Positions 10,406 through 52,728 of a DNA stretch of 52,728 bases are shown here, piece after piece. The position numbers and the translations under genes are program-made. Within the stretch, counting starts at the first letter, position 1; each line of letters begins with the position of its first letter. The notes beneath the pieces were generated by a model. That model made no database searches. It had not been told where the DNA came from and saw only the letters and a list, made by a program, of their open reading frames with translations. The DNA is taken from positions 1-52,728 of the forward strand of contig CACZQJ010000074.1 in assembly GCA_902783265.1 (NCBI GenBank). The letters are read 5' to 3'. This stretch comes from an uncultured Erysipelotrichaceae bacterium (GTDB lineage: Bacteria > Bacillota_I > Bacilli_A > RF39 > UBA660).

Positions 10406-10540
10406 CTCCTTAATATAAAAACTCTGCGTATTATGCGCGCAGAGTTAAAAGGCTTTACTAAATCCTCGGTAGGAAATTAAGCTATAAGCACCTACTGTCT
10501 ACGGCATAATATATAAATTTTCGATTGCGTGTTAATTATA
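10406..10540 (-). promoter_or_regulatory. rplJ (L10) leader with extended -10 promoter and terminator-like attenuator hairpin
   Basis: Minus strand has TGtTATAAT (-10 at 10535-10540). A structured about 110-nt leader ends in the hairpin CTCTGCG(10438-10444)/CGCAGAG(10422-10428) followed by TTTTTAT, just before the rplJ RBS. This matches the L10-leader attenuation described in Bacillus. Confidence 0.5.
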
Positions 10541-10552
10541 ACACACTATTTA

Positions 10553-11248
10553 TTAATTGTCAAAACTATTTACATCAATTTTGATGCCAGGTCCCATGGT
10601 TGAAGAAATAGATATGTTTTTTACATATGTTCCTTTAACAACTGATGGTTTTGATTTTATAATTAAAGAAACGAAGGCTTTTAAGTTATCAAGTAAGTCT
10701 TCATCTGTAAATGAAACTTTTCCAATAACTCCGTGTACGTTACCGTATGAATCAGTACGGTATTCTACTCTACCTTTTTTAATTTCTTCTACTGCCTTTT
10801 TGGTATCCATAGTAACTGTTCCTGTTTTAGGGTTAGGCATTAAGCCTTTGGGTCCTAAAATACGTCCTATTTTACCTAGCGCAGGCATCATGTCTGGAGT
10901 AGCTACTAATGAATCAAAATCAAACCAGTTTTCTTTTTCAATTTTCTCTATTAATTCGGCTTCTCCAACATAATCTGCACCAGCATCTTTTGCTGCCTTA
11001 GCGGCTTCCCCTTTTGCAAGTACTAATACTTTTTTAGTTTTTCCTGTTCCTTTAGGTAAAACTACAGCTCCTCTTAATTGTTGATCAGCTTTTTTAGTAT
11101 CTAGGTTTAAGCGCATAGCAACTTCAACTGATGCATCAAAATCGGCATAAGAAGTTTCTTTAACTAATTTTACTGCTTCTTCTTTAGTATAAGCGTTATG
11201 TTTATCAATTTTACTTATAGCAGCTTCATACTTTTTACCTTTTTTCAT
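10553..11248 (-). CDS. rplA: 50S ribosomal protein L1
   Basis: 231 aa, [10 protein letters not shown]...[13 protein letters not shown]...; conserved position after rplK. Confidence 0.97.
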
Positions 11249-13187: not shown

Positions 13188-13721
13188 TTAATTTGTTAAA
13201 ATTTCTGTTAAATAATCTAGACTATCATTAAAAAAATCTGTCATTTTATATATGCTGTCTCTAAAAGCGGTGCTTCTTGTTTTTTGATTATTAACTATTA
13301 AAATAAAACTTTTGCTGTTTTTAATAAGCTCAACATCTTTTGTGTATCTTTCGTATCTTTCTTTTAAATTTTTTAGATCTTGAATATTTCCGTATATGTA
13401 TAATTTACCTTTATTAATATACACGCTGCCACCCATAAAGTTACGAGAAAATTTTTTAATTACATTATAATCACATAAGACATTGTCTATTGATTTTTTC
13501 TTAAAGAATTTTTTCAATTTTTTGATATTTATTTTTTTGTCTCTTCCTTTTTTAAATAATTTGAATTTTTTATTATTTTTGCTTCCTCCGTTACTTAATA
13601 TGTAACACAAATCTATTTTTTTATTATTTTCAATTTTTTCGAGCATACTATCATCATCAATACCAATTCCTAGTAATGATCCTGCCATATTATCTATTAT
13701 GTTTAAAATTTTATCCTTCAT
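13188..13721 (-). CDS. Hypothetical protein (177 aa) with Lys-rich insert, no family recognised
   Basis: The ORF extends to 13733, but GGGTGA precedes the ATG at 13721 (MKDKILNI...). Lys-rich segment NKKFKLFKKGRDKKINIKKLKKFFKKK. A consensus promoter lies upstream. Confidence 0.6.
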   Translation of the reverse strand: MKDKILNIIDNMAGSLLGIGIDDDSMLEKIENNKKIDLCYILSNGGSKNNKKFKLFKKGRDKKINIKKLKKFFKKKSIDNVLCDYNVIKKFSRNFMGGSVYINKGKLYIYGNIQDLKNLKERYERYTKDVELIKNSKSFILIVNNQKTRSTAFRDSIYKMTDFFNDSLDYLTEILTN

Positions 13722-13744
13722 ACAATCACCCAAGCTATATTAAG

Positions 13745-13774
13745 ATTATATGATTTTTTTAATATTCTTGTCAA
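13745..13774 (-). promoter_or_regulatory. Consensus sigma-A promoter of the two-gene orphan cassette
   Basis: Minus strand TTGACA (13769-13774) - 18 nt - TATAAT (13745-13750); both hexamers are perfect consensus. Confidence 0.6.
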
Positions 13775-50686: not shown

Positions 50687-50742
50687 AATAAACTCCTTTA
50701 AAAACAACAATATAAGTATATCATTTTTAGGTATATTTTACC

Positions 50743-50766
50743 ATAAAAAAATAGGCAAAGCCTATT
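50743..50766 (-). terminator. Intrinsic terminator of the Cys-rich small ORF
   Basis: 7-bp hairpin aataggc (50750-50756) / gcctatt (50760-50766) overlapping the stop codon, then TTTTTTATGG on the minus strand. Confidence 0.55.
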
Positions 50767-50890
50767 TTTCGTCATGACAACCACATTCACAATTTTCATC
50801 GCACTTGCACTCTCCTTCGCAAGTACATTCTTTTCCTTCTTGACATCCACAAGTACAGTTTGGTCCGCAGTCACATTTCTTTTCTTCCAT
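50762..50890 (-). CDS. 42-aa cysteine-rich, metallothionein-like small protein (unlisted in ORF track)
   Basis: Hand translation gives MEEKKCDCGPNCTCGCQEGKECTCEGECKCDENCECGCHDEK, with 12 Cys in CxC/CxCxC spacing plus 1 His. RBS is GGAGGG 6 nt before the ATG. It has its own consensus promoter and terminator. Confidence 0.55.
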   Translation of the reverse strand: MEEKKCDCGPNCTCGCQEGKECTCEGECKCDENCECGCHDEK

Positions 50891-50908
50891 TTTTATCCCT
50901 CCTATTTA

Positions 50909-50938
50909 ATTATATACCTTATTTTTTATTATTGTCAA
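50909..50938 (-). promoter_or_regulatory. Consensus sigma-A promoter of the Cys-rich small ORF
   Basis: Minus strand TTGACA (50933-50938) - 18 nt - TATAAT (50909-50914). Confidence 0.55.
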
Positions 50939-50949
50939 AATTATTGATA

Positions 50950-50974
50950 TGAAAAAACATCTAATAATTAGATG
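50950..50974 (-). terminator. Intrinsic terminator of the CnaB adhesin gene
   Basis: 7-bp hairpin catctaa (50958-50964) / ttagatg (50968-50974) around the stop codon, then TTTTTTCATATC on the minus strand. Confidence 0.5.
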
Positions 50975-52728
50975 CTTTTTCGATTTTTTTAATAGTTTCA
51001 CTGATTGAAACGCCAAGGATATTGGCCAATAAGATTACTAAGAATGCATAATTATTGGTTTCTTCTTTTCCAGTTTTTGGAGGAAGAACTTCAATATATT
51101 CTTTAACTTCATGAGTATTAATTACGTTATAACCATCAATTACTTTAGTATAACCTTCAACTAATTCTTCATCGATTGTATAAACTACTTCCTCACCGTT
51201 TTGATATTTATATAATCCGTATAAGATATATTTCCAATTATCTTCTTTCATAACTTTAAATGTTTTGATGTATATTCCATTTCCATATAATCTTAGATTA
51301 ATGAAATCTGGTCTTATTCTATCAGCATTGTTGTTATCATTCCAGATTTTTTCTCCAGATATTGAAATGTATTCTACTTCACGTTTATTGGTTATGTCAT
51401 ATGCATTATTTGTATTTGTTTGAGGCGCTGTTAAATCATCAGTTACGTTTACGTCTGTAACGGTTGTTTTAGTGTTTTCTTCATTTTGTTCAACTGTTGT
51501 TTCGTAATTTTTAACTTCAATTTCTTCTATTTCGTATTTAACTGCCGTTTTTTTGCCTTTAACATTCTTGTATTTTTTATATCCTTTTTTATCATTATCA
51601 AATGTATGTGTCCAATCGTTACTATCATTTAACTCTGCTGAAGCGATTACTTCGCCATCGGCAAGTAAATTTACTTTAATTGATTCTGGTCTTAATCCTT
51701 CAACATTGTTTTCATCTTCCCAGTGTTTTGTAACCGTAAATGTTACAGTTTCTGGTAAATAATAGTTCGTGATTTCAAAGTTTTCATCATTAACTTCTTT
51801 GGTATATGTATTACCTTCTAATACTTCGTCAACGTAATATTTTATAGTTTCATTATTATTATCTGTTATAGGTAAATTAACAAATTCATAAGTCCAGTCT
51901 TCGCCAGTTACTTGAGCTGTTTTAATTGGGTCTTCGTGAATTCCATCATATAAATTTACAGTGATTGAATCAGGTCTAGTAACATCGTTGTTATTATCAT
52001 CTTCCCAAATCTTTTTACCAGAAATTGTTCTAACACCATTTGGTTTATATGTGTTTGTGATTTCAACTTCGAAACTATTATCTTCACTTGATGATGTGAT
52101 ATTTTGAATAGTAGTTTGACTGCTTTCATAGTTATTTACAGTTGTTTTTTCTTCGACAGAAAATTTTAGTAATTCCCCATCTCTAAATTTAGGCAAGTTT
52201 TCTTCGGTTATTGTCCACTGATTTTTATCATTTAAAGTATATGTATACTTATCATCTGTACAATAATCGGCTTTACTTGAACTACAACTTAATTTAACTT
52301 GAATGCTGTCATTATGTCCGTAGATGTTTTCTATTCCATCTTTACTTACATTAATCCATTTTTTAGTGATCTTGATGTTAGTTCTTCCAGGAACATAAGT
52401 GTTTGTAATAGTAGTTAATCCTGTTTCTTTATTTAATGAATATCCAGTTTGGGTATATCCATCTGGAAGAGAGTCAGTGTCTTCAGTCCATTTATATTCT
52501 ATTTCTTGTCCACCTGAATATTTTGGTAAATTTTCAATAGTTGCAGTCCAGTCATTACCACTATTTAAAGTAACTTCGTTTCCATTACTTAATTTAACTT
52601 TTAAAGATGTTGGACGTTTTCCGTCTTCGTTTTCACCATCGTTCCATATTTTCTTAACAGATACTGCTGTAGTTTCTGGAGTATAGCTATTAGTAATAGT
52701 AAATCCTGTTTCTTTATTTCCAGTTACG
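50961..52728 (-). CDS. Cell-wall-anchored surface protein with CnaB-type repeats and a PPKTG sorting signal (5' end outside window)
   Basis: The frame stays open to the window edge; the track's M at 52196 is an internal TTG. There are at least 5 CnaB-like units (KKIWNDGENEDGKRPTSLKVKL; KKIWEDDNNNDVTRPDSITVNLY; KHWEDENNVEGLRPESIKVNLL; EKIWNDNNNADRIRPDFINLRLY). The C-terminus is VLPPKTG plus a hydrophobic stretch plus a basic tail. Confidence 0.85.
   Translation of the reverse strand, partial: VTGNKETGFTITNSYTPETTAVSVKKIWNDGENEDGKRPTSLKVKLSNGNEVTLNSGNDWTATIENLPKYSGGQEIEYKWTEDTDSLPDGYTQTGYSLNKETGLTTITNTYVPGRTNIKITKKWINVSKDGIENIYGHNDSIQVKLSCSSSKADYCTDDKYTYTLNDKNQWTITEENLPKFRDGELLKFSVEEKTTVNNYESSQTTIQNITSSSEDNSFEVEITNTYKPNGVRTISGKKIWEDDNNNDVTRPDSITVNLYDGIHEDPIKTAQVTGEDWTYEFVNLPITDNNNETIKYYVDEVLEGNTYTKEVNDENFEITNYYLPETVTFTVTKHWEDENNVEGLRPESIKVNLLADGEVIASAELNDSNDWTHTFDNDKKGYKKYKNVKGKKTAVKYEIEEIEVKNYETTVEQNEENTKTTVTDVNVTDDLTAPQTNTNNAYDITNKREVEYISISGEKIWNDNNNADRIRPDFINLRLYGNGIYIKTFKVMKEDNWKYILYGLYKYQNGEEVVYTIDEELVEGYTKVIDGYNVINTHEVKEYIEVLPPKTGKEETNNYAFLVILLANILGVSISETIKKIEKASNY

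Follow-up and report, generated by a model that had tools for sequence, protein, structure and literature searches.

The metallothioneins described from bacteria in reviews of 2020 and 2025 are limited to the SmtA/BmtA type, its Pseudomonas relatives and MymT (PMC12193353, PMC7558416). SmtA, with ~16% Cys, essential His ligands and aromatic residues, adopts a zinc-finger-like fold and is under SmtB/ArsR control (PMC12193353, PMC13578184). Mycobacterium tuberculosis has a Cu(I) metallothionein, MymT, a 4.9-kDa protein that was originally a non-annotated open reading frame, and the Csps, which store copper, are four-helix bundles exceeding 100 residues that are folded in advance and assemble as tetramers (PMC7558416). 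A machine-learning survey of 2024, DeepMetagenome, mined candidate metallothioneins, gut-derived ones included (PMC11705764). The present study concerns a gene for a 42-residue protein with 12 Cys and one His, encoded on the minus strand of contig CACZQJ010000074.1 from an uncultured Erysipelotrichaceae bacterium, of which 52,728 nucleotides were analysed (this whole stretch is called the window below). On the evidence of sequence and genomic context the gene probably encodes a metallothionein-like small cytosolic protein, with Cu(I) as its most likely metal.

The protein has the compositional features of the metallothionein class, namely low mass, Cys residues densely set in CxC or CxxC and few or no aromatic residues. 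Cys makes up 28.6% of the residues (positions 6, 8, 12, 14, 16, 22, 24, 28, 30, 34, 36 and 38), all in the arrays CxC, CxCxC, CxC, CxC and CxCxC, and aromatic residues are absent. No other open frame of the whole 965-kb assembly reaches this Cys density. Homologues were found both in a protein collection (22 proteins of 34-74 residues) and by a scan of species genomes, one genome per species, which gave 110 encoding loci, 80 of which were fetched for analysis. The first-pass annotation of the window had proposed conservation of the Cys pattern in related genomes as a check on its reading, and the pattern proved to be conserved: ten columns of one alignment (A3) were invariant, being eight Cys (C6, C8, C12, C14, C16, C22, C24 and one more) together with G15 and Q17, while G19, K20, E21 and a C-terminal CxCGC were nearly so. 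His39 varied between H, Q, K and S. Among three 42-residue orthologues the proportion of synonymous differences (pS) was 0.79-0.94, which is saturated, against a nonsynonymous proportion (pN) of 0.07-0.15, and ~5 of the 12 Cys codons that they have in common alternated between TGT and TGC. These comparisons indicate that the gene is conserved under purifying selection and, with the top Cys density in the assembly, that the frame is not a product of chance. The core peptide was nearly unchanged across loci ranging from 26% to 71% GC and belonging to several phyla. A profile search of 1.84 billion representative sequences returned 49 clusters at E <= 1e-3, a number that does not measure the size of the family because so short a profile is underpowered.

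Among the described systems MymT appears closest in probable working mode, both being tiny (~40-55 residues), Cys-rich, cytosolic bacterial proteins. MymT is under the control of RicR, a repressor of the CsoR family, and homologues of the window gene adjoin csoR. At the level of family models no sequence relationship between the two is apparent, no Pfam or NCBIfam model matching the window protein or, in searches with both the single protein and a profile, covering its repeated module. They differ also in the ~29% Cys, strict CxC/CxCxC arrays, invariant CGCQEGKEC loop and repeat architecture of the window family, in the use of its module as a fused domain and in its hosts, which are gut and rumen anaerobes and not actinomycete pathogens. 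Apparent control by CsoR, read from adjacent csoR genes, is a feature of relatives and not of the window's own genome (87% complete), in which PF02583 was not found. With SmtA/BmtA (PF02069; PDB 1JJD) the protein would share the character of a small cytosolic bacterial metal-sequestering protein with a metal-thiolate cluster, but it lacks aromatic residues, its lone His39 is not conserved and PF02069 (Metallothio_Pro) gave no match even at E <= 10.

The Cys-only metallothioneins of eukaryotes (the MT-2 beta domain, PDB 2MHU; fungal Cup1; Neurospora metallothionein) resemble the protein in composition, CxC spacing and predicted disorder of the apo form. The best of the eukaryotic metallothionein families in Pfam, Metallothio_5, was below threshold (E 1.4, 9.6 bits against a cut-off of 25), and a sequence search of the PDB found no significant family, the sole weak match being mammalian MT-2 (E 0.27-0.43), a compositional one. 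The likeness to eukaryotic metallothioneins thus appears compositional, with nothing in the sequences that points to common descent. Csp3 shares the proposed role, cytosolic storage of Cu(I) on many Cys thiolates, but differs from the window protein, which has only 42 residues and no predicted secondary structure. AlphaFold2, run on an alignment of 30 sequences, gave a mean predicted local distance difference test score of 58 and a predicted template-modelling score of 0.24, again with no secondary structure; such low confidence is consistent with an apo-metallothionein, though not proof of one. The His/Cys-rich C-terminal tail of SlyD and the tail of Helicobacter HspA/GroES offer a parallel of another kind, in that the module too is appended to housekeeping proteins as an apparent add-on metal sponge, but those tails are mostly His-rich, bind Ni or Zn and are restricted to particular lineages, whereas the module is Cys-based and occurs also as an independent gene.

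The family is built on a conserved module, 19-22 residues long and containing seven Cys, CxCx3C[TK]CGCQ[ED]GK[EP]CTC. The window protein consists of one full module, C6-C24 (CxCx3CxCGCQEGKECTC), and a truncated second, C28-C38 (CxCx3CxCGCH), as in CKCDENCECGCH, and its relatives carry from 1.5 to at least five units. Free-standing module proteins are 33-78 residues long, and tandem forms of ~140 residues were seen at two loci (L041, L044). The module was also found joined to other proteins, the partner domains being confirmed by Pfam except for the TPR-like and RNase E/G cases. Fusions to GrpE were recorded at 10 loci. In Propioniciclava the module lies N-terminal to an HMA domain (L042, L057, L076, L083), and elsewhere it comes after the His-rich tail of an FKBP resembling SlyD (L049), stands at the N-terminus of MinD (L034) or of a SIMPL protein (L036), or forms the C-terminal tail of an aquaporin (L055), of HisRS (L081/L084) and of Akkermansia proteins of the YlbF/YmcA family (L035/L045/L051/L075). 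A planctomycete TPR-like protein, whose TPR_12 match was sub-threshold, has five tandem copies (L043), and the module is present in a putative RNase E/G as well (L090). Judged by their record titles, the carriers among rumen and gut metagenome-assembled genomes include Bacilli, Erysipelotrichaceae, Tenericutes, Clostridia, Muribaculaceae, Akkermansia, Alphaproteobacteria and Gastranaerophilales; to these are added a metagenome-assembled genome of the Planctomycetaceae and a cultured actinobacterium, Propioniciclava tarda DSM 22130. No match came from a tblastn search of collections of plasmids and phages, a result that says little about mobility since a low-complexity filter may account for it.

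One indication of the metal comes from P. tarda DSM 22130, in which the gene order is csoR, a CopZ-like protein with four modules and an HMA domain, and a copA-type P1B ATPase with an HMA domain of its own. Judged by its sequence this is a textbook copper operon whose chaperone bears the module. To see what accompanies the free-standing genes, neighbouring open frames were clustered around 44 free-standing or tandem loci and the window, and 148 neighbours from ~40 loci, after near-duplicates had been dropped, were scanned against Pfam. CsoR (PF02583) was the commonest specific family among them. The csoR gene lies 12 nt upstream of the module gene at L022 and L025 and downstream of it at L041, L044, L054 and L066, so that the adjacency occurs in two gene orders; it extends to at least four lineages and about ten fetched loci in all. 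The CsoRs beside module genes carry the ligand pattern C...H-x3-C, which we take to be the mark of the Cu(I)-sensing members of that family.

CsoR was present in 4 of 23 module-bearing genomes. In three of them, all of the window's order (G101, G255, G052), csoR is directly upstream of the module gene; in G277, the remaining one, csoR is placed ~1.3 kb upstream of a copA-like gene that includes an HMA domain and has an open frame of 732 residues. The csoR of G052 is split into two frames, which points to decay of the sensor or to a fault in the assembly; a genuine split would put G052 part-way to the condition of the window's genome, in which no sensor was found.

The distribution of the module was also compared with that of the HMA domain across 301 genomes of the window's order. 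The module was present in 21 genomes and 19 of 127 genera, the HMA domain in 184 genomes (61%), and both together only in G255, G277 and G278. HMA was thus found in 3 of 21 module-bearing genomes against 181 of the 280 others (Fisher p = 6.9e-6, odds ratio 0.09; the counts ignore phylogeny), and in one of 11 genomes when free-standing module genes alone were considered (p = 4.5e-4). Nine genera (g1, g29, g33, g46, g63, g65, g70, g71 and g111) contain species with the module and no HMA beside congeners with HMA and no module. In the window's own genus 11 of 26 genomes have HMA/copZA, and all three module carriers lack it. The window's genome (G000) is ~0.97 Mb in size, 28.7% GC and 87% complete, and neither CsoR (PF02583) nor an HMA domain was found in it. 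HMA was detected in all 14 control genomes, 13 of them above the family cut-off. The P-type ATPases of the window's genome number two, both of the PEGL type without a CPC motif, and there is one CDF transporter.

The organization of the locus (Table 1) largely bears out the first-pass annotation, which had described the frame, a consensus promoter, a strong ribosome-binding site and a terminator overlapping the stop, together forming a complete monocistronic unit. The translation was reproduced exactly, with the same Cys arrangement, single His and lack of aromatic residues, and the perfect promoter and the GGAGGG were both present. Perfect TTGACA-N16-18-TATAAT sites number three in the window as against 0.14 expected from shuffles. 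Of the other two, one lies just upstream of rplJ-rplL (L10 and L7/L12) and the other upstream of a 181-residue frame of unknown function. Since a perfect site also drives rplJ-rplL, the motif marks at least one highly expressed operon in the window's genome. Comparison with a sister species (L012) showed the stretch from TTGACA to the ATG to be conserved and the sequence 5' of TTGACA to have diverged, and a Shine-Dalgarno-like GGAG or AGGAG(G) stands a few bases before the ATG in all 10 homologous loci shown.

The terminator was seen by RNA folding, the 51-nt fold having -13.5 kcal/mol (z = -3.2) with none of 200 shuffles folding as well. A strict terminator scan of the locus detected none, the hairpin being missed because its A/U-rich stem has too few G-C pairs. 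By eye, nearly all the loci shown have a T-rich tract or a short hairpin that overlaps the stop or comes after it. Downstream, the PP-loop ATPase gene is preceded by an extended -10 box of the form TGnTATACT that is kept in sister species as TGgTATACT (L012, L003, L047); the TtcA-like PP-loop and DUF362 genes therefore have their own promoter and the 42-residue gene is a monocistronic unit. An Rfam scan of the locus revealed no known RNA, the sole match being SpF25 at 24.9 bits against a cut-off of 48.

Table 1. Coordinates of the small gene, its signals and the related features discussed in the text; positions are those of the window unless another sequence is named.
Feature	Position	Strand	Remarks
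Coding sequence of the 42-residue protein, 12 Cys and 1 His	50762..50890	-	translation MEEKKCDCGPNCTCGCQEGKECTCEGECKCDENCECGCHDEK
-35 hexamer TTGACA	50933..50938	-	promoter score 12/12
-10 hexamer TATAAT	50909..50914	-	spacer to -35 of 18 nt
Shine-Dalgarno GGAGGG	50897..50902	-	6 nt upstream of the ATG
Intrinsic-terminator-like hairpin and U-tract	50744..50769	-	by RNA folding; 10-bp stem, UUU loop; hairpin AAAAAUAGGC-UUU-GCCUAUUUUU at 50769-50747, TAG stop inside the 5' arm, U's following
Extended -10 box TGaTATACT of the PP-loop ATPase gene	50715..50723	-	past the terminator of the small gene, ahead of the PP-loop gene
csoR-copZ-copA operon, P. tarda	L042:3227-6906, NZ_FXTL01000001.1		four N-terminal module copies on the CopZ-like protein, KTCDCGADCTCGCQDGKPCTCGAE
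csoR in two frames, 45 residues and the remainder (L105)	G052:C6:73500-74800
Second perfect promoter site	10535-10563	-	upstream of rplJ-rplL
Third perfect promoter site	13745-13774	-	upstream of the 181-residue frame (13188-13733)
CnaB-repeat surface protein gene, upstream neighbour	50961-52728	-	PPKTG followed by a hydrophobic tail (sortase-type signal)

Taken together, a family under selection, fusions to HMA/CopZ and SlyD, adjacency to csoR and a distribution complementary to HMA support the first-pass view of a metallothionein-like protein unlike SmtA/BmtA. That annotation had left the choice between Zn, Cu, Cd and a redox function open, and the context evidence now narrows it towards Cu(I), which is favoured on three grounds: csoR is linked to module genes, P. 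tarda has the module in a cop operon, and the distributions of the module and of CopZ/CopA are complementary. The product would be a cytosolic peptide without a signal peptide, disordered in the absence of metal and folding around a metal-thiolate cluster of its 12 Cys thiolates; by analogy with known metallothioneins these could hold some 6-10 Cu(I) or ~4 M(II), and binding of Zn or Cd as well is chemically likely. With no sensor found and a perfect consensus promoter, we infer strong constitutive expression. The gene thus probably acts as a constitutive copper sponge in the window's genome, a standing, highly expressed product that would sequester copper in place of efflux in a ~1-Mb genome with no recognisable pump, and we infer that in the window's species it functionally replaces CopZA. 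Gut and rumen anaerobes more widely would use the module as a free protein, a tandem array or an add-on tail. A wider picture, which is possible but put forward tentatively, would make the module a horizontally spreading Cu(I)-thiolate domain and a third independent bacterial metallothionein family that replaces CsoR-CopZ-CopA in reduced genomes, with the window's species as a sensor-less end state having a constitutive promoter of ribosomal-protein grade.

Several observations weigh against a copper-binding metallothionein in the window's species. The window's locus has neither a metal sensor nor an operator that could be found, so that the regulatory link to copper is seen in relatives only, and CsoR, CopZ or CopA could sit in the missing part of a genome that is 87% complete. 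The neglect of phylogeny in the genome counts is a concern that the within-genus contrasts lessen and do not remove. Most of the fusions are to housekeeping proteins (GrpE, HisRS, MinD) for which a link to copper is not evident. The QEGKE loop is also more strongly conserved than is usual for metallothioneins, and may reflect interaction with a partner or a more specific role.

A first alternative, fairly unlikely but deserving of consideration, is that the protein is metallothionein-like and that its physiological metal is Zn(II), buffered or stored as by SmtA/BmtA, or that Cd(II) is a target of detoxification. Twelve Cys would suit an M(II)4Cys11-12 cluster like that of the mammalian alpha domain, which is established metallothionein chemistry, and Cation_efflux (CDF) genes adjoin free-standing homologues at three loci (L017, L029, L046). 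The anticorrelation with HMA is compatible with this alternative as well and cannot separate Cu from Zn or Cd, because HMA domains also mark Zn/Cd pumps, and the tails of SlyD and HisRS are known or plausible Zn/Ni binders. The sensors beside module genes, however, are of the CsoR family with the Cu(I) pattern of ligands, HTH_5 (ArsR/SmtB) and FUR (Zur) are absent from the 25 commonest neighbour families, and the sole operon with known partners is csoR-copZ-copA. Bacterial zinc metallothioneins use His ligands, whereas the only His of the window protein is replaceable, and the window's genome has in its CDF exporter a possible means of handling Zn and nothing recognisable for Cu.

A role in redox or thiol stress, or as a small carrier of an Fe-S or other cluster, appears improbable. 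Fe-S enzymes abound in the hosts, which are strict anaerobes, the gene in the window's genus adjoins a PP-loop ATPase (TtcA-like and Fe-S dependent) and a DUF362 protein, and a link to stress or to Fe-S could underlie the fusions to GrpE and to proteins of the YlbF/YmcA family. That synteny is limited to close relatives, however, with other contexts elsewhere, and no redox-related family is enriched among the neighbours, whereas CsoR is. Metal-thiolate clusters typically show dense CxC/CxCxC spacing, which is unlike the CxxCxxCxxxC of Fe-S motifs, and the HMA fusion within a cop operon has no Fe-S rationale.

It is very improbable that the frame is a Cys-sensing leader peptide in which stalling at the 12 Cys codons next to the terminator controls read-through into the PP-loop and DUF362 genes. 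Polycysteine attenuators in upstream open reading frames have been described from mycobacteria, the stop codon within the 5' arm of the terminator could allow a terminating ribosome to mask it, and the downstream genes are conserved within the genus. The non-Cys residues G15, Q17, G19, K20 and E21 are, however, conserved as much as the Cys, the same peptide is a domain within large proteins, downstream genes vary across lineages and the PP-loop gene has its own conserved -10 box. A length of 42 codons with a strong ribosome-binding site and a consensus promoter is also unlike known leader peptides. The class of Cys-codon attenuators was rejected on three of these grounds, selection extending beyond the Cys codons, no downstream operon being fixed and the module occurring within large proteins too. 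Least credible is a precursor of a Cys-rich ribosomally synthesized and post-translationally modified peptide of the sactipeptide, ranthipeptide or SCIFF type, which the small size, Cys content and Firmicutes-like anaerobic hosts, where SCIFF-type peptides are common, might suggest, but which genomic context largely refutes, since no radical-SAM or other maturase-like family, protease or exporter recurs among the 148 neighbours from ~40 loci, leader/core architecture is absent, cytosolic housekeeping proteins bear the module as a fusion and no NCBIfam model of such peptides matches.

The suggestion of the first-pass annotation that the gene was unannotated and likely to have been missed by standard annotation did not hold. 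The exact 42-residue protein is already called, as the nameless gene P0025, in NCBI, ENA and Logan; it is indexed in 35 blocks of the sequence collection searched, and 23 contigs with the exact protein were read, rumen metagenome assemblies among them. Members of its 90% cluster annotated as a 789-residue 'ABC permease' lack the module and were set aside as a clustering artefact. In the eight places shown the exact protein lies between an upstream surface-protein gene (Cna_B where the family is recorded) and the PP-loop gene, which is followed by DUF362 and Fic wherever the contig reaches far enough. In the window itself the gene lies between the stop of a large CnaB-repeat protein (50961) and the start of the PP-loop gene; the same CnaB gene in other assemblies of the species has a product of more than 2000 residues with the domains VWA, DUF7604, DUF7601 and Cna_B.

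A full-text search of the literature for the string CGCQEGKEC found no paper. A 'thioredoxin-metallothionein chimera' described in 2026 (PMC13578184) was considered and has an SmtA-type domain, different from the window's module. We regard the module family as a probable new, modular metallothionein family, for which overlap with the candidates of DeepMetagenome (PMC11705764) is possible.

Bacterial metallothioneins have been considered rare. If this reading is true, the family would be a new one among them, unrelated in sequence to those known. It would be one that spans several phyla of gut and rumen anaerobes, occurs as a free gene or an added tail and stands in near mutual exclusion with HMA-based CopZ/CopA. 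It is directly testable in a native setting, as P. tarda DSM 22130 is cultured and carries the module in its csoR-copZ-copA operon. Confirmation would make it relevant to livestock fed high doses of Cu and Zn, to co-selection by metals in gut microbiomes and to parts for bioremediation, and would mean that some commensals with small genomes handle copper through sequestration and not efflux.

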